DNA of 64,000 nucleotides from Nemertoderma westbladi. Its lineage: Eukaryota > Animalia > Xenacoelomorpha. Below the pieces are notes generated by a model that worked only from the letters and a program-made list of their open reading frames with translations, had not been told where the DNA came from and made no database searches. Below, piece by piece: positions 15,235 to 52,178 of the stretch. Each line of letters starts with the position of its first letter. Within the stretch, counting starts at the first letter, position 1. The DNA is taken from positions 77,427 through 141,426 of the forward strand of contig JAUCBJ010001864.1 in NCBI GenBank assembly GCA_032718475.1. The letters run 5' to 3'. Position numbers and translations under genes: made by a program.

Positions 15235-16804
15235 ACTATCAACTGAAAATAATCCACAACTACCAACCATCCCCGAACAGCCAGATAACGACTTAGACAA
15301 ACCAATTGATCCCGCTGAAATCACGGAAGCGGTTTACAGTCAAAAGCCAAATAAAGCAGCTGGTCCGGACGGTATCACCGGTGAAGCCTTGAAGTATGGT
15401 TTTGGTCACCTGCTTCCGTTTTTACTGACATTGTTTAGTGTTTGTTTCGCAACTGCTGCTTGCCCTGCAACCTGGCTAAAATCATACCTAATTATGCTCT
15501 ATAAGGGTAAGGGAAGTAAATTATCCCCGGACTGTTACCGTGGAATAGCGCTACTATCATGTTTGTTTAAAGTATATACTTCGATATTATTTACACGCTT
15601 ATATGAATTTGCAGAACGCCGAGGTCTACTACCAGATGCGCAACACGGTTACAGAAAATCACGTTCGACGATCGACGCTGTTAAAAGTCTATATACCCGC
15701 ATCAATTTTGCCCTTGAACCTAAGGGTGGCCATTTATACTGCGTATTTGTTGATTTTCGAAAATGTTTCGACTCGATAAACCGAGAGATTCTCTGCAGGA
15801 AATTATCGAAACTCGGAGTAAGTCGAAAGTTTATTATCGCTATCTGGTCTATGATCGCTATCAACTACATATATATCTGTGTTGGAGTTCACATTCTGGA
15901 GCCTATTACTCAAACAATTGGAGTTGTACAAGGCGATAAACTGTCTCCTTTACTTTTTAGTCTTTTTGTATCAGACCTACCAGCCTATCTCATATTCGCA
16001 TCAATTTGGATCATAATGTATGCTGATGATCTAGTCATATCAGGTGACTCTATCGCGGAGGTTCAAGCTAGTCTAGACAAACTCTCAGAATATTGTGAAG
16101 TAAATGGAATCCAGGTCAATATTGCGAAGACAAAGGTGGTTAAGTTCCGGAAGGGGGGGAGATTATCGAGGACTGACATTCTAGAATATAACGGGCAGAA
16201 ATTGGAATTTCAAAGCTCCTTTCAATATTTAGGAGTTACTCTCTCAACGAAAAATGGATCCAGAGGACACTACGATCATCTATACTCGAAAGGACTCTCC
16301 AGTTGTGTTGTAATTGCAACAAAGGTAAACCTACACATCGTTTCGCTAGAATCCGCCCAACGTTTATGGCAGTCTATTGTCCTTCCATCGACCACTTATG
16401 GCTGCAACGTCTTCACTGCAAATGGTGACCTAACGCAACTGGATCATGTTAAACGTGTCCGCGGTTTTTACTGGAAACTCTGGTGTGGAATAAGCAAGTT
16501 TGCCTCCACCACAGCCATCCTAAGTGCCATAGACAACCCGGCTAACTCAGATCCAAACATGACAGGTCTCACAGGTTTCCGACGCCGCGTGGCAGCGCAG
16601 CTATTATCAAACGGTTGCCACCACCGCCTATGTACGAAACTCAATTGCTGGAGACCCACGGAAGACTGCACCTGTTGGGTGTGTGGCTCCCTGGCGGCAA
16701 ACACAGACCACTACAAACTATGTACGCGCATACCTCAGTGCAGTTCACACCTAAAGACAGCAATTTGGCTGATGACGACAGATGCTGCAACACTAACTAT
16801 TTAA
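15235..16804 (+). CDS. Non-LTR reverse transcriptase with C-terminal Cys/His zinc-binding region (truncated; the ATG at 15215 comes from the satellite)
   Basis: Motifs KAAGPDG, YRGIALL, FVDFRKCFDS, QGDKLSP, YADD, YLG; C-terminal CWVC...DHYKLC. Confidence 0.88.
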
Positions 16805-17060
16805 ATCAATAGAAAGTTCAAGGCCCGATATACTGTTTATTTATTTTATCTTATTTAATGTGCCTTATATTATGCCAATCACCCTCTTCCCATCTTTTTA
16901 TTTAAAATATACTTTTATTTTATTTAAGTTTATTTTATAAATTTTATGTGCTCTATCCAATTACAACTTATCGTTTTAATTATGTTAAATCAAGTGTCAT
17001 TACAATAGGCATACTTATAACCATTTACTCATTGAGTAATTAAACGTCATATTGAATCTC
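15235..17060 (+). mobile_element. 5'-truncated non-LTR retrotransposon (clade uncertain, RTE-X-like) inserted in the satellite
   Basis: RT ORF followed by an AT-rich 3' UTR. The satellite resumes in register (…AAGTTTT | ATAGGATCC…). No clear TSD or poly-A tail. Confidence 0.85.
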
Positions 17061-18164
17061 ATAGGATCCGGGAAGGGGTGTGAAACGCGGATTTTAGTTA
17101 ATTACCAAGTTTTATTGGATCCGGGAAGGGGTGTGAAACGCGGATTTTAGTTAATTACCAAGTTTTATTGGATCCGGGAAGGGGTGTAAAACGCGGATTC
17201 ATGTTAATTTACCAAGTTTTATAGGATCCGGGAAGGGGTGTGAAACGCGGATTTTAGTTAATTACAAAGTTTTATTGGATCCGGGAAGGGGTGTGAAACG
17301 CGGATTCATGTTAATTACCAAGTTTTATAGGATCCGGGAAGGGGTGTGAAACGCGGATTTTAGTTAATTACAAAGTTTTATTGGATCCGGGAAAGGGTGT
17401 GAAACGCGGATTTTTGTTAATTACCAAGTTTTATTGGATCCGGGAAGGGGTGTAAAACGCGGATTCATGTTAATTTACCAAGTTTTATAGGATCCGGGAA
17501 GGGGTGTAAAACGCGGATTCATGTTAATTACCAAGTTTTATAGGATCCGGGAAGGGGTGTGAAACGCGGATTTTAGTTAATTACAAAGTTTTATTGGATC
17601 CGGGAAGGGGTGTGAAACGCGGATTTTAGTTAATTACCAAGTTTTATTGGATCCGGGAAGGGGTGTAAAACGCGGATTCATGTTAATTTACCAAGTTTTA
17701 TAGGATCCGGGAAGGGGTGTGAAACGCGGATTTTAGTTAATTACCAAGTTTTATTGGATCCGGGAAGGGGTGTAAAACGCGGATTCATGTTAATTTACCA
17801 AGTTTTATAGGATCCGGGAAAAAGGGGTGTGAAACGCGGATTTTAGTTAATTACCAAGTTTTATTGGATCCGGGAAGGGGTGTAAAACGCGGATTCAAGT
17901 TACGCGGATTCAAGTTAATTACCAAGTTTTATTGGATCCGGGAATGGGTGTAAAACGCGGATTCATGTTAATTACCAAGTTTCATTGGATCCGGGAATGG
18001 GTGTAAAACGCGGATTCAAGTTAATTACAAAGTGCGGTATCCGTCGTTATTATTACACGTATATATATTTACTACAATCTCCATCCTATAAATTATGTCT
18101 TTAAATTAAGTCCTCATGAGGTGCTATGGCTGCAGGTCAGTATTAATCGCCAGGTCATATTATT

Positions 18165-18760
18165 CCCGGATCCAGTAACACTTGGTAATTAACTTAAATC
18201 CGCGTTTTACACCCCTTCCCGGATCCAACACTTGTTAATTAACTTGAATCCGTGTTTTACACCCCTTCCCGGATCCAGAAACACTTAACTTGAATCCGCA
18301 TTTTACACCCCTTCCCGCATCCAGAAACACTTTTCAATTAACTTGAATCCGCGATTTACATACACCCCTTCCCGGATCCAATTAAACTTGGTAAATTACT
18401 GTAACTTGAATCCGCGTTTTACACCCCTTCCCGGATCCAGAAACACTTTGCAATTAACTTGAATCCGCTATTTACACCCCTTCCCGGATCCAATTAAACT
18501 TGGTAAATTAACATGAATCCGCATTTTACACCCATTCCCGGATCCAATAAAACTTGGTAATTAACATGAATCCGCGTTTTACACCCCTTCCCGGATCCAT
18601 TAAAACTTTGTAATTAACTAGAATCCGCGTTTTACACCCCTTCCCGGATCCAATAAAACTTGGTAATTAACTTGAATCCGCGTATTACACCCCTTCCCGG
18701 ATCCAATAAAACTTGGTAATTAACTTGAATCCGCGTGTTTTACACCCCTTCCCGGATCCC
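18165..18760 (-). repeat. Inverted, more degenerate block of the same 53-bp satellite (about 10 units)
   Basis: Units AATCCGCGTTTTACACCCCTTCCCGGATCC are the reverse complement of the main array, separated from it by about 130 bp of unrelated spacer. Confidence 0.93.
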
Positions 18761-22431: not shown

Positions 22432-22791
22432 ATGACTTTTGATTTGGATAAGTGTGTGGAAATTACGCGACAATGCAAGTATCTCCCGGAATACGACTTA
22501 AAGCGTCTCTGTGACATTATATGTAACCAGTTATTGGAGGAATCCAACGTGCAACCGGTGCGAACCCCCGTCACTATATGCGGCGATATCCACGGCCAAT
22601 TCTACGACCTTCTCGAATTGTTTCGCACCGGCGGACAACTGCCGGACACTAATTACATCTTTCTTGGGGATTTTGTGGACAGGGGCTACTACAGTCTCGA
22701 GTCGTTGTCCTATCTGATCGCGTTGAAAGCCAAATACCCGGATAAGATAACGCTGTTGCGGGGCAACCATGAGAGTCGACAGATCACTCAG
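22432..22791 (+). CDS. PPP6C: Serine/threonine-protein phosphatase 6 catalytic subunit, exon 1
   Basis: [25 protein letters not shown]-terminus; PPP motifs GDIHG, GDFVDRG, RGNHE; donor GTAGAA at 22792 (phase 0). Confidence 0.96.
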
Positions 22792-23205
22792 GTAGAACTG
22801 TATGTATGATGCACAACAGCATTAGGCCAGGCTATGACTGGCAGACTGGTCTGGTGCTTAGATCGTATCTTTTCCAGTTAATTTATTTTATTTAATTTTG
22901 TATAAAAATTAAAACAAGTGAATTGGTTGGAGAAAGTTGCTAGGCCTACTAAGCAGCAACTACTTCCAGTCCACAGGTTCTTAAGATATGCGTTATGAAT
23001 TTCAAAGCTAGCTGTCGTTTTACGGTAGGCCTAAAACAAACTTATCATTTGAGGTTAATGCGTTACTCCTACCGATAAAACAGTTCGTTTTTGTGGCATA
23101 GGACAATAATTCAGTGTTTTCGGCTCCTAAAACTGTAGAATTTTATAAAGATAATTAAGTAATTTATTGACGTTCTGTTATTATTTTCTTGTATTTCTCT
23201 TTAAG

Positions 23206-23760
23206 GTTTACGGATTTTACGATGAATGTATGACAAAGTACGGTAACGCTAATGCATGGCGTCACTGTACCCGTGTGTTCGATCTGCTCACCATAGCGGC
23301 CATTATAGACGAGCACATACTCTGCGTACACGGTGGACTGAGCCCAGACATCCGCACCATAGACCAAATACGAGTGATAGACCGCCAAGTCGAGATCCCC
23401 CACAAGGGGGCGTTCTGCGACCTGGTCTGGTCCGACCCCGAGGACGTGGACACCTGGGCGATCTCTCCTCGGGGGGCCGGCTGGCTGTTCGGGGCGCGAG
23501 TTACCGAGGATTTCATCCGGATTAACGGACTCAGACTCATCGCTCGAGCTCACCAACTCGTCCACGAGGGTTACAAGTACATGTTCGATGATAAACTCGT
23601 GACCATCTGGTCGGCGCCCAACTATTGCTATCGTTGCGGGAATATCGCGGCTATACTGAAGTGCGACACGGTTGATTCCCGCGAACCGCGACTGTTTAAG
23701 GCCGTCCCGGATGACGAACGGGTAGTCCCTGCCAGAACAACAACTCCTTATTTCCTGTAA
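23206..23760 (+). CDS. PPP6C: PP6 catalytic subunit, exon 2 (protein 304 aa in total)
   Basis: Acceptor tttctctttaag. Reads VYGFYDEC...HGGLSP...SAPNYC...RTTTPYFL*, the PP6-type C-terminus. AATAAA at about 23862 and 23910. Confidence 0.96.
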
Positions 23761-25507
23761 CTATTTATTATTTCTCTGTTTGTCCACTTCCTATGTTAAT
23801 ATATTAGGTGTAATATAAAGTATAAAAACCTACATGACGACTTTTAACGTAATATTATTATAATAAAGATAATTTTATCTCAAAAATTCACTTTGTTTCA
23901 TTATATTTTAATAAAGTAATGCTTTCGCGCACTATTTTTTTACTTTCTACAATTAAAATAATGGCAGAAAGTCTTTCTACCACTATTTTATTGGCATAAT
24001 GTACGTAATTTTAGCTCAGTGGTCAGACCACAGGGTGCTGTGCTGTTATTTACTGAGATCGAGACTCGGTTGCAGTAGCAAATTTTCGTAAATTCGAATC
24101 TTGACTATTTCAATAAAATTTGATCTGATATAATCACAAATATGGATTTTTGTATTAAGATTAATTACGCTGAATACCGCATTCCGTAACCGTGGAACCC
24201 GGTGAAAAGGATATATCGACCCCTTAGAACCATAACGAGCCACGTCCACATTTTGTCAAAATTTAGTTATTGGTATCATTGGAATGCTGAACAAAAGTAC
24301 TATTATCCATGATAAAAGGCTCAAGTCCATATCTGCATTAAACTATCAGATCTGGCAAGTCGGTCTAATAGCCATGTCCAAGCCATGAATTCGGATAAAT
24401 GGGCCAATATATAATAACGCAAGAAACAATGATACTATAAAAGATCAATTGGCTTATTTTCAAATATTTGGTGCTGGCATAGCAGTTTACACCGACCGAC
24501 GAAAAATACAAGTTTATTATTCCATTGCAAATTTAGAACCCTCTCTAACCCGTATAGTGACACCATCAATTGATGTATTTGATGGTTTTCAAAATTTGCT
24601 GCTAGCATCAAATTTTGCACCCATTTCCGAAAAATACAAGTTAGAGATGTCTAGTTAGATAATTATATATTTCATTGAAATCAGAACCGCCAAAAGCCTC
24701 TAAAATGCGGGATTAAGTTGTCACAAGCAATATAACTATTGAATAGATTTTCAAAACTTCGTGCTGGCACCAAATTTTGCACACAGCACCGAAAAATACA
24801 AGTTTGATACGCCTGGTGCAACACGTATACATATATTTCATCGAAATCAGATCCCCAAAAAACCCATGTAATGTTCTTATTGCGCAAAAACAGGTTCAAA
24901 CAATCAATTTACAAAATTGACATATTTCAAATTTTGGTGCTGGCACCAAAATTTGGCACCCGCGTAAAAAAACAAGTTTGAAATTTCTAAATTAATCTAT
25001 ATGAATTCCACATGATTGCAAACACCTAAAACTGGTGTAAATCAAAAATAGATGAATAAAAAAAAATTTGATTTTAAACACGTTTTAGAACGATGCCGTG
25101 CGTTTTAAATAGAATCTAGATTTTTTTTCTAAAAAAAGTTCTAGAACAATAAATATTTGTTATTGAACATATTTTTTTTAAATGAATAGCTAACATGTTC
25201 TGGAACACTTTCTATACAAGTAGTAATAAAAACTAACTAGGCCTACTACAAAATATTTATAGAAGGAAGTAGGATGTCGGAACCAGTGTCAAAATTACTA
25301 GCTAAACCTACCTAAAACACTAGCTACCCTAACATTTAGTATCTTGCTTAACGAGGAGAATTCAATTCAGTCAAATTAAAGAATTATATCAAAATATCAA
25401 ATTGTTGTAAAAAAAAAACTGGTCTCTTTTTGAATGGCCTCAAATGCAGATTTGGAAAAAAATTTAGCAGCGGTTTTCTGTCATCCATATCTATGTATCT
25501 TTTTATA

Positions 25508-26160: not shown

Positions 26161-26445
26161 CTCGTTCCACAGTATATTAATTTAATACAGTTCCAATTTA
26201 ATAATTTATTTAATATAGTTCCATCTAACAACTTTTGTTATTGGGTTATTTAATACGCATGACCATTCAGTTTGATAAAACATTACTTTTGTTACATTAT
26301 GTTTAAATTAACAGCGTTCTGGTGAATTACTCGTAACGCTGCAAAGTTGCAACGTTTTGCAGCGTTGCGGCCTATAGGACGGAACGCTGCAAAGTAATCA
26401 ATGACATGGAAACAATTTCAATTAACGTATTCCAGAATGTATTAT

Positions 26446-28697
26446 TGATGAATTATTTCACTATAAGATAGCATTTGTAGTTTAACTTTAACGTAAAAAC
26501 TTTCGAAAATCCGACGTATTTTGATTGAGTTACAGTAATGTAATATGCCTATTCATATTTGTACACATAAAACCCCTAGGTACTCTCGTGGCGTAGTGGT
26601 CAGATGGTTAAGGCGTTGGTTACATTACATAGGTTACGAGTTCGAATCCCAGTCGGGAAATTTGTATTTTGGGGCCATTTATTTTCGTTTGGTGCTAATT
26701 GGTAGGCCAATGAGAAGCGTACAGCGTAGCGAATGATGAGCCAGGCCAATCATAGGGCATAAATTATCTTATTGCTCAAATGTGAGGCAGTGGAAAATTC
26801 TGTTAGGATTCCATGTCCCAGATTAGTGTAAGGGCCGGACTGCGTTGAACGATGAGCTGGGCCAATCATAGGGCACGAAGCACTTCATTGCTCAATTGTG
26901 AAGCTGTGGAAAATTCTGTTTAGTTTCCATGTGCAATTTCTAGTATAAAAAGGCCGGTTTGCCTTCGGTTATCACCTTCTTTGTAAAACTCTTATTTTGT
27001 AAAATTAGTTTATTCGGTTTCTTGTTGAAACTTTATTTGATAAATCCTTTTGTAAAACTGTAAATATACTGCAATTTCCTGACATGTTTTCTTTTGGTCC
27101 GACTTCGGGACAGCCGAACACCAGGGAGATGGCAGCCTAGATCGTTAGGCCGTAAGCAACGCAGGGAAGGGATGTCCACAACACGCTAGCGCCCACATTG
27201 GATCGACCGCGCACCCCCTTTGCCCCTTCGAAATACTCCACTTGCTATGCAGCGCCCGCTTTGTGAGAAGGTAAGACTTTGTTCGACGCCCTTGCCCGCC
27301 GTAAGACCTATAGATCAGGGTAAGCGTGACATCGTACTGGACGCCGCAAATTTAGGATCAAATAATTATATCCAGACACCCCCCCTTTGTCAAGTCCTAC
27401 GAATCCCTGGGTTAACCTGTACTTCCTACAGGTGCGAACTATTGCCATTCGTCAGTACGCGAGTACATATTAGGTACGGACAGCACATGTTCCATAATTT
27501 AGTGATTCATAGCACTGACTGTTTGGTACCGGTTCGCTTTGTAGAACGTACATTAGTACCCCCCCCCCCCCCCCCTCTGTCTGGAGTTAGCTATTTGATC
27601 AGGCAAGGAGCATTTCTGCTACCGGCACACTGCTTGGCCTAGGGAGGTTTATTAATATCCTACCGCGCCTTGCCACGTACTGATAGGTATTGCTGCTAAC
27701 TACCGCAGCAACAAAGTTCTAGAATTAAATTAGTATACCAGATCAGCTAACGTACGGTAGCGATTAACCCCTATTCTTATCTTACAACCAGAATCTGGTA
27801 TTAGTGCCGATCACGGGTGTAGTTACTAACACTGTGGTTGCCCATTGGGTTGTGGATAGGAAGGAGAGAGCTTTGACGTCATTTGTGAGTATAAAGTTCT
27901 ACAAACGCGACTAGTTTATTTTAGTAGCTAGCGCACGGTATCATTTAGTCAGAAAATCACTAAAACCTAGTAAAAGGAATTACACGAAATTGTTTTATTT
28001 GTAACACACCCACACACACACGCCCTAAAACATATTGCCCTTAAAGTTCTACTAGCTATAGCGTACTATACATTACGTTAGGTGGAAATTATCTGTATTT
28101 GTAAAATTAGGATCTGATTTAGTTGCGGCAAGATAAGGAGTATTTCACTTTCGTTATTAAACTGTTGTTTGTCTGGACAACGGTATTGTTACATTTAGGC
28201 CTGACCTTTTAGACTGATTTCGTACAGGGGGATCAGTTATTGTTACATTTAGGCACGACCTTTAGGCTGATTTCGACAGGGATGATCAGCATTGTTACAC
28301 TAGGTCTGTTAACCACCTAGTTCGTATATAACCCATATAAATCACACCGCGGCAAGTTACTGTATTTAGGACTGTCAGTGATAGTTAGGATTCGCTGCGT
28401 GGGGATTGTTTTCCCGTGAGTTTGGTCTGTTACTGTAACTGTACATCTGCCTCACCGGTTAGAGGACAGGTATCCTTCTGTCTAGTACGTAGGCATTAGA
28501 CCCGCTCACGTACATAGAATAGATACAAGGCTCTGTTCCTCGCCAGTAGTCGTTTGTGTACTATATCTGTTTGTTTAGATATCCTGGACTGGGATTTGTT
28601 GTCAGATACTGTACAAGCCCGTATACATTACTAGAGTCTCATAGTAAGATACATCGTTACTAGGATCTGGTAAGCGGTATACTACTGGACCCTTACA
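26446..28697 (+). repeat. 5' LTR (2252 bp)
   Basis: Near-identical to 40237-42510 (about four substitutions and a few indels seen). Confidence 0.97.
26700..26952 (+). promoter_or_regulatory. Putative LTR U3 promoter: duplicated CCAAT-containing block and TATA box
   Basis: GGCCAAT occurs three times, two of them in diverged duplicated blocks (26735 and 26851). TATAAAAA at 26944. Confidence 0.6.
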
Positions 28698-29691
28698 GTA
28701 GGAAGTACTATATAAATTAGTGTATAGTATTGTTAGATCTGTACGCTTTGTAGTGCGTGCGCACTACAATAGTAGGAAGTATATTAGACAAATTCTGAAA
28801 TTAGCGTATAGTATAGTTTAGAATTGTTAGCTATTGAAAGTAGGAGATATTTAAAATTTAAGGTTAGTAAATTTAGTAATTTAGAACGTCCCCTGCTTCA
28901 GTAGGCTTTTAGGGTAGCTAGTACTTTCGTATTTAATATTTGACTAGCTAACAGTTAGTTTGTAGCACTTTGTTTTACGCCGTGTGTGTGCGGTGTTACT
29001 TTTCGGTACTTGAAAAGGTACATAGGGTTTAAAGACCAATTTGTATCGGTACCTAGGAAGATTTTTCGTAAGCGTAGAAGTAAAACTCTCACCTTCGACC
29101 TTTTCAGGACTCAAGGACTCATTTCTGGACCGCTTCGAGGATTAGACCGCTTTTCGCAAAGTTTGGGAGACAATAAATTCGTCCGCGCCGCCGAAAAACG
29201 GAAAGACCCACGTCCGGTTTGTATTTGGGAATTTGTACGACTGGAAGATCAAAGGAACGTAAGTTTTACGACTCGCGTCGTTCAAACTTAAGAAAGCACA
29301 GTAGTACTCAAAATTTGTGGGTTTCACTGTCTATTAGTAGTGTTGTTGGTACTTATTTTCCCGTTAGACGTTGCTGTTTGGCCTATTGTTTATACTTGTT
29401 GATCTATATTTTGTTAACGTATACCGTTATCTCACTTATTCGTACAAATTTAGCCGGTAGGCTAGATTACTACTTATTTTATTATATACTTTGTTAGTTT
29501 ATTTGTACCGGTTAGGATATATATATGATATATATATATATCAAGGTAAGTTTGACATTTGTACATTTCGACATTTTGACATTTCGACATTCTGACTTGT
29601 TGATTTATTTGTACCGGTTAGGTAAGTTCGACACTTCAACATTCAGACACTTTGACATTTTATTACCCGTACTTGACGTATATAATAAGAC

Positions 29692-32600
29692 ATGAGTGAC
29701 ACACCCCATTCGACGAGATACCCACCTACCGACTATGACTCGTGCGACCCGGACAGATCGACAGTAGACGAACCGAGAAGGAGAACCCGAGATTCCACCG
29801 ATGTCACACCGCTTGCGTCGCCGGTACCCCGAACGGAAATACCGGAAGCCGCAACGCGTGGCGACAGCAGGATCGAAGATTTCCTTACCGTCCCGCAGAC
29901 TAGATCGCGGGAACCGGACATGGTAAGTTCGACTGGAAGCCAGGAGAACGTTATTAGAAGTATAGGAGGACACATGGCCCAGATTACTCGGAACCTCGGA
30001 GAAGGTTTTCGCGTTTTACGCGAGTTAACCGCCCCGATGTCGAGATACGAGTTCTACACCTTACAGGTAAGGATAGAAAGTAGGGTACATGCCTCCGTAG
30101 ATAAACTTAAAGGTTTGCACGAACTTGCAGAGTTGCGTGGCGACAACTTTACTCAGGTAAAGATAGTAGATAAATTGGTAAGTGCGAGAGAAAGCCTTAT
30201 CCAGTTTAAGTCGGTAATAAGCTTGGCTCAACAGGAGCAGTTCGACCAACTGCTAGGTGAGTCAGTTTCGGACGCGTTGTTACAACCCGAAGAGGAAGAA
30301 GAACTCTACTGCCTGGACGGAAGGTTGGAAACGCTGACCAATTTTCTTCGTAGATGCGGCGTACCGATCGACGAACCGGAAGTCGAACCGCGAGGGACGA
30401 CGGAAGTTCTCACTACGGAAGGCTCGCGAGCCTACCAACATCCACCGCTGGATAGATCGTTTGTTAGCGTACGGAGCGACGTTGGCAACGTTGGCGACGT
30501 TAGTAGAACAGCGTCTGGAATTACTCGACAACAACAGGAGGTTGCACGCCGACAACAAGTCGCCGAGGAAGAAGCGCGACACCAGATGGCACAGATCGCC
30601 ATCGAAGGAGAGAAACAACGTAGAGAAGACGAGGCAAGAATTGCACAACTCAAGGCGCAAGCTGAATTCGAAGCATCAGAAATGCGCAGACTGGAGGAGG
30701 ACTTAGCGCGAGAAGCGGCAGCCGACGAGTTAGCACGGCAGAAAGCAGCATCCGACGTTCGTGCCAAGTTGGAGGCGCGGCAAATAAACGCTCGATTAGC
30801 TATACAGGAAGCGGAATTAGCGGCACAACAACAGGACGCAGATCGACGCGAAAGGGAGATGCAACTACAGTTCGAATTGAATCGTAGATCGCGCGAGACA
30901 GCGAACGCGCAAGCGGACCTCGAACTCGACGCGAGAGATAGATCTATGAGATCGCGAACTGGACACGACTTGTCTGCCCTGGATCGTATGGAAGCTCGAT
31001 ATCGCGGAATACAGAAGCGGATCGAGGAAGGAAGCGTGGGAGCGATAGATCGAGGAGAGGAGTTCGTCGAGGATTACTGCAAACGTTTTCCCCAAGTTAT
31101 TCCTATGCTCAAACCCACGACTCCGATAAAACCGGTCTTCGTTACGAAACCTAAGGAAATAACGCCTGTGCGTTCGACGCAAGGCAACAGGTTTGTTGTG
31201 ACGGAAATACCGCAACCTAGGGCGACTTCATCGCCAATTTTAGCAGGTAACATAACTAGTCCACCTACAGTAAGTCGTAGTCTACTTGTAGGAAGAGAGG
31301 AACCTGCGTTTATGACCATTAAACAGGTGAGTAAACCATTACAAGTTAAACCTGTGACGTGCTGTGCAAATCCAGTTATTTACAGACCGACTACGAAACC
31401 CGACTATTTCACTCGACCGTTGACACAATGTTCGACGCAACCTACGACTTCGTGGAAGGCTTGCGAGCCTACCGAACTACGGAGGAGGATGGAGGTGGGT
31501 AGTACCCACGGGATCGGACAACGTATAGCGAGACCTACGACTTCGTGGAAGGCTTGCGAGCCTACCGAACAACGGAGAGCCGTAGATTCCGGACCGCAAC
31601 GGACGAAAACGAGAGTAATACGCCGGACACGAACCCGCCAACCACCTTATCCGGACGACAGCGATTCATCTAGTGACTCGGAGTCGACGGAACGGGAAAT
31701 ATTCCGTACTGGAGCGGCGGAAGATTGCAAACGAGAGGAGAGATCGACGAACCCCTATATCGACAATCCTCCACGAGAAACACCCCAACAGAAACCCACG
31801 TTGAAACCAGCGGAAACGATCAGCGCTAAACAGTTCACCGAGATGACGGACAGAATAGCTCAACTCGAAGAACGACTCGAAGCGCAACCGTCGGATCGAT
31901 CACGAACCAGCGTGGAGTTGGAACAACCTAGACAACATCGACCACCGAGGAGAGAACAGGAGACTAGACGGACTCCGACACATCGAAAAGAAGATCCCGT
32001 TAATAATTCCTACCGACGAACAACGCGCGGAAGGGAGCGACTGGACGACGCCGCCGAACAGGGACGCGGACAGTTGGATTTGGTTAGCGAGATTGCGAAA
32101 TTCGCGGCTAGACACGGATTACCGGCACAGCAACCGCCGAAGTTCTCTGGCAACGCGAAACACTGGCGCACACTGGTAGACTACGTAGAGTCCCAGATCG
32201 CTAAGTGTGCTTTCACCTCGACGGAGAAGTTTAACTACTTGCTCCAAGTCCTGTCTGGTGAGCCGAAACGATTAGCGGAAACCTTTATTGGTGTTCCCGA
32301 TGCCTTTGAATTGGCGTACGACCGTTTGTATTCGATTTACGGCGGTAATGTCGCCATGGCTAAATCCATTATAGAAGACCTCTGCAGAGGAGGCAACATT
32401 TCGAGACCGATCGACCTTTTACGACTCGCGGACGAAATAAAGAACGCTATAGGGACTTTACGGTCCATTGGACAACTCGAGTACGCTAACGCACCGACGG
32501 TTCTCATTCGAATAATCGGTCGACTTCATCATCGACTACGACGAGAATGGCGATGCATCGAGTACCAGCGCGAAGAGGCCGGAGGGTTATTAAAACTCAC

Positions 32601-35600
32601 CGATGTCTATCAACTTATTTCACGGGAGGCCGTGATTGAGACTCGATCGAACTATACCGATCACCATATCGCGGCGGAAGGGATAACTGTTTCTGCGCCG
32701 AATCGGACTAAACCGTTTCCGACGAACGCGAAAGCCGTTACTTACGCCACCCCTACTGAGACTTCTAAAGTTCTGACGCCTATCGGCACCACGCAGCCAC
32801 GACAACAGTTGCCGGCGGACTTTGTGGGATGCTCATACTGCGAGCGGAACGGCAGAAACCATAGCGGACATAAACTACGTGGATGTCGCGCTTTTAAAGA
32901 GTTAGGGATCGAGGAAAGGAGACTCCAAATCCGATCTCTAGATTCCTGTTGGAGATGTATGAAGCCAGGACACGTCCGGAAGGATTGCCCGAGCGACGAT
33001 ACATGTTCTTTGTGTGGACGTAACCATGACGCGTTGCTTCACACAACCAGTCATACTCCGACCCGACGCTTTCGACGAGAGCATCCCGATAAAGCGGCTA
33101 GATGCGACGCGCTTTATAAGGAGCGTGCGCCGCGCGAGATCCGTACCTTTTATACCGACTGTATGGATCAGTCAGGATCATCGGACGAGGACGAGGAGGA
33201 AGACGACACTTTCTACGTGCATGCAGGTGAGGAACAGCCATCGATAACGCTCCTCACACAGAACCAATTGAAAGGGTTTAGCGTGATTCCTATAAAGATT
33301 ACCGGAACCCGAGGGAGCAAGCGTATATACGCCATCTTAGACTCTGCGTCATCGCATAGCTATGTCGACGAACAAGTAGCCGACGTAGTTACGGACTTGA
33401 GTCAAGGTAAGACTGCTCAGTATACTGTAAGCAGCATGTATGGTAAGAGAGCGATTCCTGTGACGAGAGTAAAACTAACCTTAGACACTCTTCTTTCCAA
33501 AGCGGAACACAGCAAGGAGGAGCGCTCATTACTTCCGGTAAGAAATTTGACCTTTGCAGCTACGAAGGACTTTAGTAACTTGCTCGGCCCTGTGCCAGAG
33601 CAATCACCGGAAGATCGTAAGTATTTCCGACACCTTGGAATACCGGAATGTCCTGTCAATTATCGTTCCATTGCGATGTTAATTGGGACAGACCAGTTTA
33701 ACTTACATCAGGTATGGGAGACACGCCCATCTGTTATTACAGCGGGCAACCCCTACGCATGTAGAACTCCCATAGGTTGGTATACTAGAGCACCAATACG
33801 TTCACTAGAGGTAAGTGACCAGGAGGACGACGTTTTGAGTATGTGTAGTTTATTGACTAACACGATAGATAATTCTCCTTCACACTCCCGTGGTCCAATT
33901 GTACGGACGGCACTACGACAGACTCGCGTCACTAACACAGACGCCACCGATACTGACGTAACCGATCTGGACACGACCATACGGACCTCTGACTTACAAC
34001 TACTTGCAGTAGACCAGGTTGTATTGACTACTGAAGACCTGAGGGTTGTTGCCGTGGATGACTCGATGAACGAAGATTTTGGAAGGCTTGCGAGCCTACC
34101 GAAAAATCCGAAGGTCATTGACCCCACCCACCAGGCTTCGACACCGGTCGTTGATCTTGGAAGGCTTGCGAGCCTACCGATAGATCAAGAGGTTGTCAAA
34201 CCGCCGCACGACAATTCGACGCCGACTAGTGACACCGGAAGGCTTGCGAGCCTACCAGACACATTGACACTAGCCACCGCAGCGGACGAAGACGTGGACG
34301 AGGACCATGGCGCAGTGCAAGCAGCGCTTGACCGACTGCTGACTGAACGGACCATTCAATGGTTGGAACAGGACTCAGCAGAACCCGGTAGTTACGAGAC
34401 CGCTATGTCAGAACAGGAAAAACGGTCATTAAATATTATGAGAGATACCATTCGCCAGACCGCGAATGGCCACTATGAGGTTGGTATGTTGTGGCGCGAT
34501 GGACAACCTAAGCTCGTTAACAATTACCCGCTTGCTTTGAGGCGACTCAAATCAATAAGGCAGCGATTGTTGCGAGACGAGACGGCCCATATGCAATACA
34601 ATGCACAACTTCAGACGTATCTCCAAAGGGGATACGCCATTAGGATGTTAAATCCTGAGGTAACCACAGACCAGACATATTACCTGCCACATCATTTTGT
34701 TCGACACCCGGACAAACCTGGCAAGGTGCGTGTAGTCAACGACTGCGCTGCACTTTACCAAGGGATGTCTATGAATAGCGAACTGATGGACGGGCCGAAT
34801 ATGAATAATTACCTCATGGGAGTCCTAATGCGTTTTAGACAACGCAAAGTGGCTTTCACCTGTGACGTAGAGGCCATGTTTCACCAGGTTAAGGCTTTGG
34901 AGCGGGACAGGGACAGTTTGAGGTTTCTTTGGTATCCGGACGGAAACTTACAACTTCCGCCAGAAACTTACCAAATGCAGGTAAGAGTATTCGGAGCCAG
35001 GGACAGCCCCAACTGCACCATGTACGCCTTAAAGCAGACAGCATTAGACAGACGAGACCAATTTGACCCAGAAGTAGTTCGGACCGTGGAACGAGACTTC
35101 TACGTGGATGACGGCCTCAAGAGTTGTGACACCTTGGAGCGCGCTACAACCGTAGCACACCAACTCCAGGATTGTCTCGCTGAGGGCGGATTTCACCTGA
35201 CGAAGTTCGCTTCCAACGAACCCGAACTGGTGAACTCATTTGACCCGATGGATCGTAGCGGAGGTGACTTGGACTTAGACTTAGAACCTCTGCCGACGAC
35301 CAAAGTATTAGGACTTAGTTGGGACCCTAACACCGACAATTTTAGGGTACGTGTAAGGTCCAACGACCAGACTAGACCTCTCACAAAGAGGACTTGCTTA
35401 TCGACCATGAGTCGATTGTATGACCCATTGTGTTTCATTAGTCCAGTGATCCTACATGCCAGGATCATACTCCGCAGCATTTGGCAAGCCGGACTGGAAT
35501 GGGACGATCCCATCCCAGAAAAGTTAGCTGAGCGATGGAGGGACTGGGAAGCCCAACTGACGTTCCTACAAGACTATACCATACCAAGGGTATACCATAC

Positions 35601-35688
35601 GCGGCTAGTTTACCCGGAATTCGTTTTTTATCGGCACATTTTTTGGATTAGGAGCCAGTGCGAAATCACGCGAACCCGAAATCATTAG
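29692..35688 (+). CDS. BEL/Pao Gag-protease-RT polyprotein (1998 aa), truncated before RNase H
   Basis: PPKFSG Gag motif; Cys/His knuckles (CWRCMKPGHVRKDC, CSLCGRNHDALLH); protease ILDSAS; RT YLPHH, RVVNDC, DVEAMFHQV, FYVDD, KVLGLSW, YDPL. Homology is lost after DYTIPRVY. Confidence 0.95.
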   Translation: MSDTPHSTRYPPTDYDSCDPDRSTVDEPRRRTRDSTDVTPLASPVPRTEIPEAATRGDSRIEDFLTVPQTRSREPDMVSSTGSQENVIRSIGGHMAQITRNLGEGFRVLRELTAPMSRYEFYTLQVRIESRVHASVDKLKGLHELAELRGDNFTQVKIVDKLVSARESLIQFKSVISLAQQEQFDQLLGESVSDALLQPEEEEELYCLDGRLETLTNFLRRCGVPIDEPEVEPRGTTEVLTTEGSRAYQHPPLDRSFVSVRSDVGNVGDVSRTASGITRQQQEVARRQQVAEEEARHQMAQIAIEGEKQRREDEARIAQLKAQAEFEASEMRRLEEDLAREAAADELARQKAASDVRAKLEARQINARLAIQEAELAAQQQDADRREREMQLQFELNRRSRETANAQADLELDARDRSMRSRTGHDLSALDRMEARYRGIQKRIEEGSVGAIDRGEEFVEDYCKRFPQVIPMLKPTTPIKPVFVTKPKEITPVRSTQGNRFVVTEIPQPRATSSPILAGNITSPPTVSRSLLVGREEPAFMTIKQVSKPLQVKPVTCCANPVIYRPTTKPDYFTRPLTQCSTQPTTSWKACEPTELRRRMEVGSTHGIGQRIARPTTSWKACEPTEQRRAVDSGPQRTKTRVIRRTRTRQPPYPDDSDSSSDSESTEREIFRTGAAEDCKREERSTNPYIDNPPRETPQQKPTLKPAETISAKQFTEMTDRIAQLEERLEAQPSDRSRTSVELEQPRQHRPPRREQETRRTPTHRKEDPVNNSYRRTTRGRERLDDAAEQGRGQLDLVSEIAKFAARHGLPAQQPPKFSGNAKHWRTLVDYVESQIAKCAFTSTEKFNYLLQVLSGEPKRLAETFIGVPDAFELAYDRLYSIYGGNVAMAKSIIEDLCRGGNISRPIDLLRLADEIKNAIGTLRSIGQLEYANAPTVLIRIIGRLHHRLRREWRCIEYQREEAGGLLKLTDVYQLISREAVIETRSNYTDHHIAAEGITVSAPNRTKPFPTNAKAVTYATPTETSKVLTPIGTTQPRQQLPADFVGCSYCERNGRNHSGHKLRGCRAFKELGIEERRLQIRSLDSCWRCMKPGHVRKDCPSDDTCSLCGRNHDALLHTTSHTPTRRFRREHPDKAARCDALYKERAPREIRTFYTDCMDQSGSSDEDEEEDDTFYVHAGEEQPSITLLTQNQLKGFSVIPIKITGTRGSKRIYAILDSASSHSYVDEQVADVVTDLSQGKTAQYTVSSMYGKRAIPVTRVKLTLDTLLSKAEHSKEERSLLPVRNLTFAATKDFSNLLGPVPEQSPEDRKYFRHLGIPECPVNYRSIAMLIGTDQFNLHQVWETRPSVITAGNPYACRTPIGWYTRAPIRSLEVSDQEDDVLSMCSLLTNTIDNSPSHSRGPIVRTALRQTRVTNTDATDTDVTDLDTTIRTSDLQLLAVDQVVLTTEDLRVVAVDDSMNEDFGRLASLPKNPKVIDPTHQASTPVVDLGRLASLPIDQEVVKPPHDNSTPTSDTGRLASLPDTLTLATAADEDVDEDHGAVQAALDRLLTERTIQWLEQDSAEPGSYETAMSEQEKRSLNIMRDTIRQTANGHYEVGMLWRDGQPKLVNNYPLALRRLKSIRQRLLRDETAHMQYNAQLQTYLQRGYAIRMLNPEVTTDQTYYLPHHFVRHPDKPGKVRVVNDCAALYQGMSMNSELMDGPNMNNYLMGVLMRFRQRKVAFTCDVEAMFHQVKALERDRDSLRFLWYPDGNLQLPPETYQMQVRVFGARDSPNCTMYALKQTALDRRDQFDPEVVRTVERDFYVDDGLKSCDTLERATTVAHQLQDCLAEGGFHLTKFASNEPELVNSFDPMDRSGGDLDLDLEPLPTTKVLGLSWDPNTDNFRVRVRSNDQTRPLTKRTCLSTMSRLYDPLCFISPVILHARIILRSIWQAGLEWDDPIPEKLAERWRDWEAQLTFLQDYTIPRVYHTRLVYPEFVFYRHIFWIRSQCEITRTRNH

Positions 35689-35822
35689 GCAAAATGGGTT
35701 GGGGTTTAGAGCAGAGTTGAGCCAAAAGCCAACAAACTCTGGAGTCACCTCCCATCTAACCTCTATTTTGTGCTTCATCTAGTAGAAACGTAACGATATG
35801 TAACCGCATATATTCGTATACG

Positions 35823-38800
35823 ATGGCGGAGAAGATGTATAAAGAGTTACGTCAAGGGTTTACGCAAGAACAGGAGCACCAGGCGCCATTCAATCGTTAT
35901 GGAGCTAAAAACTTTAGTGTGTTTGGAGTGGAGAGTATGGCTAGGAGTACGGCCAAGCTCGCTAAATCCAAGGCGGACCCGAATGTTAGCGACAGCGGTT
36001 GGACGCATACAACAAAAGAACGGAGGAATTACGCGCGGAATACAATGCGTTATATCCCTACGATGCGTTATGCGACGCTAGCGACATTTGCGAGGATCCA
36101 GACACCGAAATACGCCGATTGTATCATACGCTGCAATATTTGACGGTAAACAAACCTTTACCTGCAGCTAGAGACGAATTTGAAGGAATGCATCTTTATA
36201 GACGCGCTCGAGGAGCGGATCCAGAGACCAAGGACGCGTTTTCCGTATACAAACTGTTTTATAAATGTGGAGCGTGTATGCGCGAGCAAGACAACGCGAT
36301 TCCTATGCGGTTGAACTCGGAGAACCCCGAGCCGATATTAGCGCGATGTTCACACCACCAAAGTCTACGTTACCAAGAAGGCGGATACCCTTTGACAAAT
36401 CCGTATCATTCTTTTAAGATGAGTGGACCGAACGCGGGTGAGATCGTTATTTACGAACCTAAATTAGTCGAACCAGACGTCTACAGCATGGTAGTGGACG
36501 AGTCTAACAAGTCGACTCAAGAGAAACGGGAAGCTTTGAGCCTCTACAGGGCGTACAAGGCGTACGAGAAAGGCGAGATCGAGGAGTTCGGCGGAAGGCT
36601 CGCGAGCCTACCATTCTATTGGATATCCCACGATCAAACCGAACCCAAGGAGATGACACCCGAGCTCTTCGATAGTATCACCTTTGCTCAGCGTTTGTCG
36701 CAGAGACTACAGATACCTCACGTTGAGATGACGCGAGAACCTCAGCCCCATTCTACTGGAGCGATAGTATCGGTTGCGAGACCAACTAGTTTTCCTATTA
36801 GTATACCGACCCGGAAGGAGACAACTTACGAGATCCCTATAGTTGAACACCCGGAGATCATCTCGAACCTGGATTTCCTCCCATCGGTCACCTTCGGTGA
36901 TGTGTTAGAATCAACCGAGTTGCGTAAAGTAATAGTTCAAAAAATCGTACGCAACGTGCCTCCACATATCACGGACTTTAAGGAAGTGGATCGCGCGGGG
37001 ACGGATATCGCACCTTGTATCTTGCGAGGATATCTGACGAAAACGATTCGATTATGGATCGGAGTTGGGACGTTTGAGACCGACACCGATATCGCGACCA
37101 ATTGGACTGGTAAACCTATTAGTTTCGATGATGAAAAGTCGATCGGGAGAATTTGGAACCCTACCGATGATTTACTCGACGATTGGGACGTGACTAGCCG
37201 ATCTCTGAAAGAGAATGGATATATGTTTTACGATAATGAAGGAGGAAGCCATCAGCAAAGCCTCACTTCAAAGACGATACAGATTAGAGCACCAGATGGC
37301 GTGTTACATGTCTTCAGCCGACAGAGGAGTGATAGGAAGATGCCTATGCCGGAAGGAACGACGCAAAGACACGCGATGATAAAACGGATAGTTAAATCCA
37401 TGGACCTGGCTTGTAGCATAGAAGCTAGGATGTTGCCAAAGGCCGTGCGAGACGTTGTGTTGGATAAGAGCATCGTCAAGATCGGATCCGGTGTACGGGA
37501 TGACCTCATTAGCGACTTTGCAGGGATGCCCACGGAAGAGGACCGATTGCCTACGCCATACGTGGATACTAGACCATTGTTGCTTTGGGCTATTGAGCAA
37601 GGATACTTTAGAGAGTATAACATGCTAAAAACTGGGACGGGTTATATCTCATATCTGATGTTCAGTTGGGATTACAAGGAGAGTAAGAGGAACAAATACA
37701 CGGACGTATACGGAGAGGGAGATACCCCCGGCGTAAACGAGTTCGAGTCACAGTTGAAGTGGCGAGGTTGCGTGTATTGGGCGATTACTTCACCTCCGCG
37801 GATAATCTTGCAATACTATTTAGCGATAGAATCTTCGGTTAACGTTTGTTTCATCGCGGACGTAGTATCCAGAACCTTAAAGCGACACCCGTTATGTCTT
37901 GGCGAAGGACATACCTTTTACGATGGAGGAAGGACGCATACCGATGTATTCCGACGATTTCTCCAACCCTTTTATAACACCGATGCGCACTGCGAAGTTT
38001 TCACGCGAGCGGGACTTAGCGTTTTCAGGGACGTCTATCTCACTCACGCGGGAAGTCTAGTTGACAGACCGTCGATGTTAACGTTAGTACCCTATGACGG
38101 GGAACGCCACGCGGAATTCGAACGCCCGGAAGGATCCTGGAAGGCTCGCGAGCCTACCGCCCATCATGACGATGTGGATCCGACCGAGTTGGCGCTAATA
38201 GACGAACCGTTACGGCAACTCATAGAAATAGAAGAGAACCTTCCAAGGAAGACGCGAACTGAGATACGCGAGTTAGAGAAAAGCGATGCCATGGTTTGTG
38301 TACAACCTACGGAGACGAACATACCGACTGACCCGGATGATGAGAATTATCACGTGGACGGTAGCGCTCGCCCCATCGGAGACCTCATCTATGAGCGAGT
38401 TTGGTATCCTGCCAACACTATTTGTGGCAGATGTGGAGCAACTGGCCATCACGCAAAGAAGTGCGGAGCGAAGCACATATCTCTACCGGATTTAGTATGC
38501 AACTGGTGCGGGGATCAACGTTCGCACACTTTCTACACTTGCTGGCGTTTCGTGGCGCAGTGTACTTATTGTAATATTAAGGGCCATAGGGCATCTGAAT
38601 GTCAACTTAGAGACGTCCCCTATGAGCACATGTCAGTTAAAATCGTTCGACAATTATTCGACCATTGGGAGGATCTAGCAGACGAGCATGTATCGACGCA
38701 GCGACGCCGCTTCCCTATGAGAGCACATTTGGGATTTTGGGCCGTAAACCCTCTCATAATGTCAAAGGAAGGATATGTATCGGCTATGCCTCAGTACGAT

Positions 38801-39577
38801 GAATTGTTGGAGGTATTGGATATATTGCCGTTGGACAGTGGATTCAAAGTTGTGCGGGACTATTTCTTACAAGTGCACCCGGACAACAAGAATACTTAGA
38901 ACTTTCAAACTGTGGTGAACAAGATTACCGCCGGAGAATTCGATAAACTGCGAGTTGAACAGCGGAATCGAGGAGCCTGGCATTCGATAGCTTGGGCATA
39001 CCGGAGCGCATTTTATCACAAACGCGTAACCTCGTGCATTCTGGACGAGACCGACGTTTTGCGTGAGACTGGCTTCAAGGCCACGCCGTTAGCGGAGAAG
39101 ACGCGTCACCCACAGGATGATCAGCAATTTCGTATACTCAAAGCCCAGAAGGCCGGACAAGAGATTAAGAAGATAGTGAATGTCGCCGAGAGGACGACAT
39201 CGAAATCGCAAATCCGGATGACTCGGGGCACGGTTTCCCTTGCTAGAGAACCACACGGAGGGACAGGATACGCTTTGACTGAACCCATTAGGATTCAAAC
39301 GACGTCAGAGAGCGAGGTGTCAACGGACGGAACAGTCCTACCCTTTCGACTTCCTCCTAGCGTTGTAGAAACTCGATCCGATGTTAAGTCGACAGTTGGA
39401 ATCGGACGAGGATTTAGAGGATTGAGCGCACGACGGATGTGCGAAACTCCCGTCGTCCCCTTTCCTAGCGTTTTGGAACCACCGACGACTCGACGCCGAA
39501 GTCCGAGCCCAGTTCGACCTCGACCACCCCCCAATCGCACTAGAGGACGTGGACGAGCCCGCTCAGCGAAGGAATAG
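35823..39577 (+). CDS. Accessory ORF2 of the BEL element: putative DEDDy 3'-5' exonuclease plus CCHC zinc knuckles (core ORF 35999-38899; probable N-terminal frameshift and in-frame TAG at 38897)
   Basis: ISFDDE, TIQI, LPKAVRDVVLDKSIVKIGSGVRDDL, YVDT, W...P....QYYLAIE; then CGRCGATGHHAKKC, CNWCGDQRSHTFYTC, CTYCNIKGHRASEC. ORF 38912-39577 is in the same frame as the core ORF. Confidence 0.7.
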
Positions 39578-40236
39578 GAAGCGAGTGGAAGGAAGGCTTG
39601 CGAGCCTACCGATTTGGATATTATATTTGGATATTATATTTGGATGTTATATTTGGATATTATATTTGGATATTTTATTTGGATATTTATATTGGACATT
39701 ATGTTTGAACGTTGGGTTTGGAAGAACGAGATATGGAAAGGAAGGCTTGCGAGCCTACCGTTAGCAATTAGTGCTCAGGAGAAGATATCCAGACCAGCAG
39801 GACGAACTTTTAAGATCGTCAGGAGGACTCTTTAAGACTTATTTGAAGGATTTTAGCGCATTATGTTTATTTTATATTTAGACTGATTTAATTTGGTGAA
39901 TTTATTATGTATATTTACAATATATAAAGATTTATCGAAAGAGTTTGATTTATTTGTTTGATTTGTTTGATTTATTTGTTCTGATTTGTTTAATTTGCTT
40001 ACCTTGATAACCGAAAGCCTTTTTTTTGTATTTTAGGCACTAAAGTTAATTAGTAAATTTGTATTTGTATGTACGATCGATTGTATTTACGCCGTATCTG
40101 CAATATTAAATATGCAATAATTAGATAGTGATTATATTTTATATTTTAGGCCCTACCAGTAAATTTAGAAATAGTTTGTAAATATTTTATATTTCGATTG
40201 GTGAAAACAGTCTTACTTACTGTTTTCATGGAGCGG

Positions 40237-42510
40237 TGATGAATTATTTCACTATAAGATAGCATTTGTAGTTTAACTTTAACGTAAAAACTTTCGAAAA
40301 TCCGACGTATTTTGATTGAGTTACAGTAATGTAATATGCCTATTCATATTTGTACACATAAAACCCCTAGGTACTCTCGTGGCGTAGTGGTCAGATGGTT
40401 AAGGCGTTGGTTACATTACATAGGTTACGAGTTCGAATCCCAGTCGGGAAATTTGTATTTTGGGGCCATTTATTTTCGTTTGGTGCTAATTGGTAGGCCA
40501 ATGAGAAGCGTACAGCGTAGCGAATGATGAGCCAGGCCAATCATAGGGCATAAATTATCTTATTGCTCAAATGTGAGGTAGTGGAAAATTCTGTTAGGAT
40601 TCCATGTCCCAGATTGTAAGGGCCGGACTGCGTTGAACGATGAGCTGGGCCAATCATAGGGCACGAAGCACTTCATTGCTCAATTGTGAAGCTGTGGAAA
40701 ATTCTGTTTAGTTTCCATGTGCAATTTCTAGTATAAAAAGGCCGGTTTGCCTTCGGTTATCACCTTATATTATGTCACTTCTTACCACTTTGTAAAACTC
40801 TTATTTTGTAAAATTAGTTTATTCGGTTTCTTGTTGAAACTTTATTTGATAAATCCTTTTGTAAAACTGTAAATATACTGCAATTTCCTGACATGTTTTC
40901 TTTTGGTCCGACTTCGGGACAGCCGAACACCAGGGAGATGGCAGCCTAGATCGTTAGGCCGTAAGCAACGCAGGGAAGGGATGTCCACAACACGCTAGCG
41001 CCCACATTGGATCGACCGCGCACCCCCTTTGCCCCTTCGAAATACTCCACTTGCTATGCAGCGCCCGCTTTGTGAGAAGGTAAGACTTTGTTCGACGCCC
41101 TTGCCCGCCGTAAGACCTATAGATCAGGGTAAGCGTGACATCGTACTGGACGCCGCAAATTTAGGATCAAATAATTATATCCAGACACCCCCCCTTTGTC
41201 AAGTCCTACGAATCCCTGGGTTAACCTGTACTTCCTACAGGTGCGAACTATTGCCATTCGTCAGTACGCGAGTACATATTAGGTACGGACAGCACATGTT
41301 CCATAATTTAGTGATTCATAGCACTGACTGTTTGGTACCGGTTCGCTTTGTAGAACGTACATTAGTACCCCCCCCCCCCCCCCCCCCCTCTGTCTGGAGT
41401 TAGCTATTTGATCAGGCAAGGAGCATTTCTGCTACCGGCACACTGCTTGGCCTAGGGAGGTTTATTAATATCCTACCGCGCCTTGCCACGTACTGATAGG
41501 TATTGCTGCTAACTACCGCAGCAACAAAGTTCTAGAATTAAATTAGTATACCAGATCAGCTAACGTACGGTAGCGATTAAACCCTATTCTTATCTTACAA
41601 CCAGAATCTGGTATTAGTGCCGATCACGGGTGTAGTTACTAACACTGTGGTTGCCCATTGGGTTGTGGATAGGAAGGAGAGAGCTTTGACGTCATTTGTG
41701 AGTATAAAGTTCTACAAACGCGACTAGTTTATTTTAGTAGCTAGCGCACGGTATCATTTAGTCAGAAAATCACTAAAACCTAGTAAAAGGAATTACACGA
41801 AATTGTTTTATTTGTAACACACCCACACACACACGCCCTAAAACATATTGCCCTTAAAGTTCTACTAGCTATAGCGTACTATACATTACGTTAGGTGGAA
41901 ATTATCTGTATTTGTAAAATTAGGATCTGATTTAGTTGCGGCAAGATAAGGAGTATTTCACTTTCGTTATTAAACTGTTGTTTGTCTGGACAACGGTATT
42001 GTTACATTTAGGCCTGACCTTTTAGACTGATTTCGTACAGGGGGATCAGTTATTGTTACATTTAGGCACGACCTTTAGGCTGATTTCGACAGGGATGATC
42101 AGCATTGTTACACTAGGTCTGTTAACCACCTAGTTCGTATATAACCCATATAAATCACACCGCGGCAAGTTACTGTATTTAGGACTGTCAGTGATAGTTA
42201 GGATTCGCTGCGCGGGGATTGTTTTCCCGTGAGTTTGGTCTGTTACTGTAACTGTACATCTGCCTCACCGGTTAGAGGACAGGTATCCTTCTGTCTAGTA
42301 CGTAGGCATTAGACCCGCTCACGTACATAGAATAGATACAAGGCTCTGTTCCTCGCCAGTAGTCGTTTGTGTACTATATCTGTTTGTTTAGATATCCTGG
42401 ACTGGGATTTGTTGTCAGATACTGTACAAGCCCGTATACATTACTAGAGTCTCATAGTAAGATACATCGTTAGTAGGATCTGGTAAGCGGTATACTACTG
42501 GACCCTTACA
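40237..42510 (+). repeat. 3' LTR (2274 bp)
   Basis: Copy of 26446-28697, preceded by a short purine-rich GGAGCGG. Confidence 0.97.
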
Positions 42511-42515
42511 ATTAT

Positions 42516-50957: not shown

Positions 50958-50989
<32 letters not shown>

Positions 50990-52115: not shown

Positions 52116-52178
52116 CCTCTTTACTTTCTCCTGGCTTCTTAGCAGTCACAGTTCAGTGGTTGTTGGCTATTGTTTTAC

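Follow-up and report, generated by a model that had tools for sequence, protein, structure and literature searches.

The window analysed here, a stretch of 64,000 nucleotides from a contig of Nemertoderma westbladi, contains a BEL/Pao element of 16 kb in total, located at 26446-42510 (Table 1). The two LTRs are 98.6 % identical, differing by four substitutions and three indels, and this identity together with the ATTAT target duplication points to a young insertion. The LTR owes its length in part to internal duplications at 26731-26932 (86 nt at 81 %) and 28183-28299 (a 53-nt tandem). A stretch of U3 at about 26590-26665, also found in the 3' LTR, resembles by eye the Pol III A and B boxes of a tRNA-derived repeat; ARAGORN and Rfam gave nothing significant for tRNAs or structured RNAs in the LTR, this stretch included. 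On the LTR and leader, the distinct contigs from runs X1 and X2 number in the thousands, which indicates a family with many diverged copies.

The window also contains two broken BEL/Pao-related remnants on the minus strand (46558-52145 and 55456-63944), one with gag only and the other of a distant lineage with pieces of RT and integrase; for these, no LTR pair or no 5' end was found within view. A further RT ORF is located at 55456-57591. Satellite arrays with units of 46, 52 and 53 nt are present at 1-4230, 9226-10289 and 11726-18759, and RT ORFs between the arrays at 7792-9264 and 15185-16804.

Table 1 Features of the BEL/Pao element, in window coordinates
Feature	Position	Strand	Remarks
Left target-site duplication	26441..26445	+	ATTAT
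5' LTR	26446..28697	+	TG...CA, 2252 nt
TATA-like box	26944..26950	+	TATAAAA; transcription start inferred near 26975
Candidate LTR intron	27060..27394	+	Inferred; may be what is left of a splice-built primer like that of relatives
Hairpin around predicted primer	27415..27433	+	7 bp, closed by ACCT/AGGT; z -1.1, alone not significant
Predicted self-primer	27419..27429	+	GTACTTCCTAC, exact complement of PBS
Imperfect U5 stem-loop	28663..28692	+	Not above chance
Predicted PBS	28698..28708	+	GTAGGAAGTAC, flush with LTR end, no TGG
Second PBS-like copy	28772..28785	+	In degenerate leader duplication
ORF1	29692..35688	+	Single gag-PR-RT ORF
ORF2	35990..38899	+	969 aa; three CCHC knuckles and putative DEDDy-type 3'-5' exonuclease domain
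Purine-rich tract	40230..40236	+	GGAGCGG, short; PPT position ahead of 3' LTR
3' LTR	40237..42510	+	TG...CA; second 11-mer copy at 41228-41238
Right target-site duplication	42511..42515	+	ATTAT

Coding content of the element

ORF1 contains DUF1759, two CCHC-type knuckles, an ILDSA protease motif and YVDD, while Peptidase_A17 is represented by the first 72 of its 162 positions only. The best 120 relatives listed for ORF1 are BEL/Pao polyproteins with 40-47 % identity, and those with names are from marine invertebrates. Several features of BEL/Pao elements were found together, i.e. a TG...CA LTR pair with a target duplication, DUF1759, Peptidase_A17 and a BEL/Pao-type RT. The similarity of ORF1 to four intact relatives stops near 35595, and no match to RNase H or integrase was obtained anywhere in the element. 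We read the element as a probable deletion derivative of a BEL/Pao lineage, non-autonomous rather than an intact member.

The place of the missing RNase H and integrase is occupied by ORF2. The nearest Atlas clusters to the ORF2 region are 3'-5' exonucleases (PF01612, score 0.85-0.90), and comparison with Pfam and PDB sequences gave the knuckles only, with no Pfam exonuclease match. One weak relative with the same layout was found among 1.84 billion representatives (P0123, E 6e-5). The positions that we take to be the ExoI-III acidic motifs were assigned by eye from a two-row alignment, and the fold model of ORF2 was unusable (pLDDT 30). It is likely, at the level of a lead, that ORF2 carries a DEDDy-type 3'-5' exonuclease domain. 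The Juno and Vesta LTR elements of bdelloid rotifers have a comparable ORF3 after pol, which is DEDDy and similar to 3'-5' exonucleases of the RNase D/WRN type (PMC5408684, in excerpt). However, Juno and Vesta represent other LTR lineages, and ORF2 is set apart by its 969 aa, three CCHC knuckles and single weak relative.

According to the ICTV, the Belpaoviridae are primed by host tRNA through an 18-nt PBS for tRNA-Arg or tRNA-Gly; their LTRs measure 0.2-1.2 kb and their genomes 4-10 kb, and their replication is called poorly understood (PMC8742986). The element shares with this family the LTRs, a gag with DUF1759 and knuckles followed by PR and RT, and Peptidase_A17 (PMC8742986). It differs in its 2.25 kb LTRs, which are about twice the ICTV range, in its size of 16 kb, and in having no tRNA PBS, RNase H or integrase.

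The primer-binding site and its complement in the LTR

The leader of the element is complementary, immediately after the terminal CA of the 5' LTR, to a short segment of the LTR itself. The reverse complement of GTAGGAAGTAC has only two occurrences, at 27419 and, in the 3' LTR, at 41228, and the match covers 11 nt from the first base past the CA. Only three of 11514 internal start positions reached 11 nt, the PBS itself being among the three. When the LTR was shuffled with a Markov model, an 11-nt match was seen in 1 of 4000 shuffles at offset 0 and in 18 of 4000 at offsets 0-5. Mature tRNAs carry CCA at the 3' end, yet the first TGG downstream of the 5' LTR is found at +429, following 428 nt free of TGG, and a whole-tRNA primer is therefore excluded. 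BEL/Pao is defined by an 18-nt PBS that fits a tRNA-Arg or tRNA-Gly 3' end, and such a site is absent here.

These results bear on an earlier note on the same DNA, which had claimed that the 5' LTR ends at 28697 and is followed by an exact, flush 11-nt complement of 27419-27429 and not by a TGG site of the tRNA type. The LTR end was confirmed by the 3' LTR copy and the flanking ATTAT, the complement was recovered and stops at 11 nt, and no earlier TGG was found. The chance of such a match, given there as ~5e-4, is about 3e-4 according to our shuffles and start-position counts. The obvious TATA said to lie ~475 nt upstream of the 11-mer was located as well, TATAAAA at 26944 giving 475 nt. The stem-loop described in U5 before the PBS is indeed predicted, being the MFE structure of 28660-28697, but a special meaning for it was not supported: its z score is -0.41, 64 of 200 shuffles fold equally well, and z is below -2 in just 2 of 13 relatives. 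The PBS-like copy at 28772, the ACCT/AGGT hairpin and the absence of RNase H and integrase had been missed.

Between 27045 and 27465 (421 nt), 22 sites have substitutions at 4 % or more in X1, X2 or X6, and none of them is within 27405-27465, yet substitution-free gaps of 48-84 nt occur elsewhere in this region. In diverged copies, changes are clustered within the 11-mer, the length and flanks of which are kept; one X4 contig has three listed changes in the 11-mer and no net change in length. Three X1 contigs and four X2 contigs have loose ends at the 11-mer. The variants fit what would be expected of a primer cassette drifting together with its PBS, but could also be explained by dead copies or by a tolerant hairpin loop.

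Self-complementary leaders among BEL/Pao relatives

Relatives were collected by a metagenome scan with an RT alignment, and among the best 80 of 525 confirmed loci an RT-flanking repeat was present in 42. Seventeen loci were chosen by eye in which both repeat copies end in CA or TA and then diverge, so that the LTR end is fixed independently of any primer idea. L019 was a duplicate of L022, leaving 16 relatives with a fixed LTR end. The search for self-complements allowed exon-exon joints and used a threshold of 10 nt, with GTR donors and offsets 0-5 in the final settings; the offsets were widened from 0-3 after a first look, and the null was rerun under the same settings. With offsets 0-3, a self-complement of at least 10 nt was found in 11 of the 16 relatives, and with offsets 0-5 in 13 of the 16, the matches being 10-15 nt long and located at offsets 0-4. 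When leaders were compared with the LTRs of other families, 10 nt was reached in 6 of 266 mismatched pairs, pairs among three sister families sharing a PBS not being included. The letters of the PBS differ from family to family, except in the sister families L002, L007 and L028.

Ten of the 13 matches span LTR introns of 67-186 nt, which have GTAAG or GTACG donors and pyrimidine-rich AG acceptors, and in the three others (L029, L032 and L068) the self-complement is contiguous. The predicted primer is 52-223 nt from the LTR end in the relatives, compared to 1268 nt in the element. L069 and L072, which have a TGG in the leader (sites at 56-75 and 406-425, respectively), showed neither a self-complement nor any GTAAG or acceptor in the LTR, and no self-complement was found in L064, the LTR of which is 154 nt and probably shortened. 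The relatives' loci that were inspected are elements of 7-8 kb in which one long ORF leaves little space for an ORF2. Viral contigs were also scanned for relatives, and nothing was found in them.

Twelve loci with unfixed LTR ends were scanned in addition, a scan that is weak on length alone as 21 of 60 shuffles reached 10 nt. Canonical spliced matches of 10-15 nt were obtained for L042, L046, L053, L075 and L063, L004 had a non-canonical match only and L015 none. In L063, a perfect leader-LTR complement of 14 nt was found in addition to the 11-nt match of the spliced primer; it joins about 600-615 of the leader to the part of the LTR that precedes the donor.

The earlier note had proposed a tRNA-independent priming lineage within BEL/Pao, which would be tested by whether sister families keep the PBS-LTR pairing when the letters change. 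Across families this was the outcome, with pairing in 13 of 16 relatives as against 6 of 266 mismatched pairs, and the proposed lineage is supported to that extent.

The RT tree, made with care from 22 rows (20 scored loci, the element and one distant row, unscored loci being excluded), placed the element in a 99/97 clade with the splice-primed L053, L021 and L063 and with the TGG families L069 and L072. The branch of the element is long (1.48), which makes its placement less sure. Based on this clade, the element probably derives from a self-priming BEL/Pao lineage and has become independent of the intron. L069 and L072 are sister to L063 (99/93), and it is possible that these TGG families, nested among splice-primed ones, represent a return to tRNA priming. 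The contiguous-primer state requires at least three changes among the spliced families, forced by starred branches. The simplest reading, the root being unsure, would be that the splice-built primer is ancestral, that dependence on splicing was lost repeatedly and that tRNA priming came back once.

The LTR of the element itself has a candidate intron, with weak donors at 27060 (GT) and 27071 (GC) at 116-127 nt downstream of the TATA, a distance similar to that in the relatives. GTAAG motifs are present in it at 27152, 27271, 27301 and 27320. The candidate acceptor consists of a pyrimidine tract and an AAG ending at 27394, and the next six letters are those of the 3' half of the primer. A host phosphatase gene at about 22433-23761, with a Metallophos match and probably PP6-like, has an apparent single intron with an AAG acceptor, and this suggests that such acceptors are used by the host. 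The PBS-like copy at 28772 matches the contiguous primer over 10 nt and a putative GC-AG joint, 27070/27395, over 14 nt; 14 nt was reached at 1 of 1500 random positions, but the latter match was found post hoc and has a poor GC donor. It is possible that this joint and the 28772 copy are a relic of a splice-built primer system. Against the PBS itself, none of the GT-AG joints in the LTR of the element was better than the contiguous 11 nt, the best giving 9 nt, or 10 nt with a GC donor. A lariat-tail primer made from the acceptor at 27431 was considered and rejected by reasoning, as an extra AG would be left unpaired with the terminal CA.

A primer system in transition may be imagined, in which the decayed splice-built joint 27070/27395 would stand beside the new, splice-independent pair of 27419-27429 and 28698, within a large marine BEL/Pao lineage for which the host spliceosome would assemble the primer from an internal piece of LTR RNA, and which would have undergone intron losses, a return to TGG and repeated switching. 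This picture is tentative, and may well be wrong.

Probable self-priming, its possible routes and significance

Priming by an RNA derived from the LTR of the element, all routes taken together, is in our view highly probable. We put at about 0.8 the probability that the element is a recent BEL/Pao insertion without RNase H and integrase, the minus-strand DNA of which is primed by RNA of its own LTR and not by a tRNA. As for the route, the odds seem slightly in favour of an internal primer in the 5' LTR that is cut by RNase H in trans.

We infer the order of events, the RNA start, the cut and the enzyme as follows. The TATA at 26944 would direct transcription from a start about 30 nt downstream, and folding of the RNA would bring 27419-27429 into pairing with 28698-28708. 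The cut between 27429 and 27430 would be made by a nuclease, probably the RT-RNase H of an intact family member, and RT would extend the 3' end of the primer, flush with the terminal CA, copying about 1.27 kb of R/U5 before it jumps to the copy in the 3' LTR. The primer, still attached, would then be copied during plus-strand synthesis, and the PBS would be rewritten from it. The primer of Tf1 reportedly stays attached during reverse transcription, and a PBS rewritten from an attached primer could explain how the two continue to match exactly when their letters change. Most relatives would obtain the primer as an exon-exon joint when the LTR intron is spliced out, and the element and three relatives would carry it ready-made and contiguous. 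In agreement with such pairing, 7 of 11 relatives have a helix of primer and PBS for which the mean pair probability exceeds 0.5. Against the reading speak the four of 11 relatives in which the helix is unformed, the 1268 nt between primer and LTR end in the element and the lack of RNase H in this copy.

It is also conceivable, though unlikely, that the geometry is strictly that of Tf1, with genomic RNA starting exactly at 27419, its first 11 nt as the primer, and the hairpin masking the 3'-LTR copy only; this would still be self-priming. The length of 11 nt is also the Tf1 figure (PMC7175516, in excerpt), and in L021 the TATA is located 36 nt above the donor. In global folds of the element, formation of the helix was confined to an RNA extending from 27419 to 28740 (mean P 0.35), where it is part of the MFE structure. 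With starts at 27410 or 26975 the primer is occupied by the ACCT/AGGT hairpin or by other pairings and the helix is lost (P at most 0.004), as it is when the RNA runs on to 28830. These folds speak against an internal primer, but long-range folds over 1.3 kb are unreliable and provide weak evidence. However, no TATA was found near -30 of 27419, and the distance from the TATA down to the donor or primer is 101-142 nt in L063, L068, L028 and L022; in relatives other than these and L021 no TATA was found. Judged from this spacing, an internal primer position looks common, which fits the suggestion in the earlier note that the primer may not be the 5' end of the RNA.

A comparably low probability is given to a primer from another LTR RNA, still self-encoded. 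Either the 3'-LTR end of the genome would be cut back as far as the duplex, for which the ORF2 exonuclease might be used, or a short transcript confined to the LTR would serve in trans. Such a primer would be consistent with the presence of the 11-mer in both LTRs, with the resemblance of ORF2 to 3'-5' exonucleases and with the AATAAA or ATTAAA located 12-104 nt below the acceptor or primer in 9 of 13 relatives. It would also let one LTR copy stay unspliced, as is needed for inheritance of the intron in the splice-primed relatives. On the other hand, the 7-8 kb, single-ORF build of the relatives indicates that an exonuclease is not general, and in the element the exonuclease call is at lead level, with cluster scores of 0.85-0.90 and no usable fold model.

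The pairing could be real but structural or regulatory, serving packaging, dimerisation or a switch in translation or splicing, with a tRNA half or other host RNA as the primer. Half-tRNA priming exists in Copia lineages (PMC6317226, in excerpt), and the 11-mer resembles the 3' end of an intron, with a branch-like TTAAC, pyrimidines and a CAG at 27431. We regard this explanation as improbable, since the PBS letters vary between families and one host RNA could not serve them all, the start of the pairing is always within 0-5 nt of the LTR end, where priming must occur, and the TGG-type relatives are without it. Chance complementarity within an LTR as long as 2.25 kb, where the mismatched leader of L029 did reach 11 nt with spliced joints allowed, is very improbable considering the single match at offset 0 in 4000 shuffles and a trait common to 13 of 16 relatives.

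Self-priming by the LTR thus stands as our preferred reading, and it has precedents. In Tf1, the primer consists of the first 11 nt of the RNA itself and is cut by RNase H (PMC7175516, PMC5341516, both in excerpt), and there are reports of self-priming for Tf1/sushi and Tcn1, with a prediction of it for TAR copia elements (PMC6317226, in excerpt). Tf1 and Tf2 of Schizosaccharomyces pombe and the Tf1/sushi-Tcn1 elements likewise have an 11-nt PBS beside the LTR end that is complementary to their own LTR, and no tRNA site (PMC7175516, PMC5341516, PMC6317226, all in excerpt). The Tf1/sushi group, however, has a Ty3/gypsy chromovirus RT, whereas the RT here is of the BEL/Pao type. Compared to Tf1, the primer here is probably internal, is 1.27 kb from the PBS and would be splice-built in most relatives, the U5 stem-loop is not significant, and RNase H, by which the Tf1 primer is cut, is missing from this copy. 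For the plant Ty1/copia lineage TAR (Houba/Osr-1), self-priming was similarly predicted from a match of at least 10 nt between leader and 5' LTR; TAR belongs to another superfamily and host kingdom, and no splice-built primer is described in the excerpt of PMC6317226.

In the literature covered, largely without subscription papers, Repbase entries and supplementary PBS tables, no report of self-priming or of a splice-built primer in BEL/Pao was found. A term search of PMC554778, PMC3118150 and PMC6238403 gave no mention of PBS, tRNA or priming, and in the excerpts of PMC5443660, PMC3601003 and PMC6934838 the text on self-priming concerns only Tf1-type elements and chromoviruses.

The evidence supports a variant of a known self-priming mechanism, predicted here from sequence for a superfamily that is defined as tRNA-primed. 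Judged in the same way, the present copy is the intron-independent, non-autonomous form with very long LTRs, and the more striking, splice-built form would be that of the relatives. As intron-bearing, intron-less and TGG families occur in one clade, the gain and loss of primers can be tested in it. LTR annotation tools that require a tRNA PBS would miss or misjudge such families. If our reading is true, a mechanism known from Gypsy elements of the fission yeast type and predicted for plant Copia elements reaches a third LTR superfamily, in animals, and, with a primer that exists only after splicing in most relatives, the onset of reverse transcription would be coupled to the RNA processing of the host.
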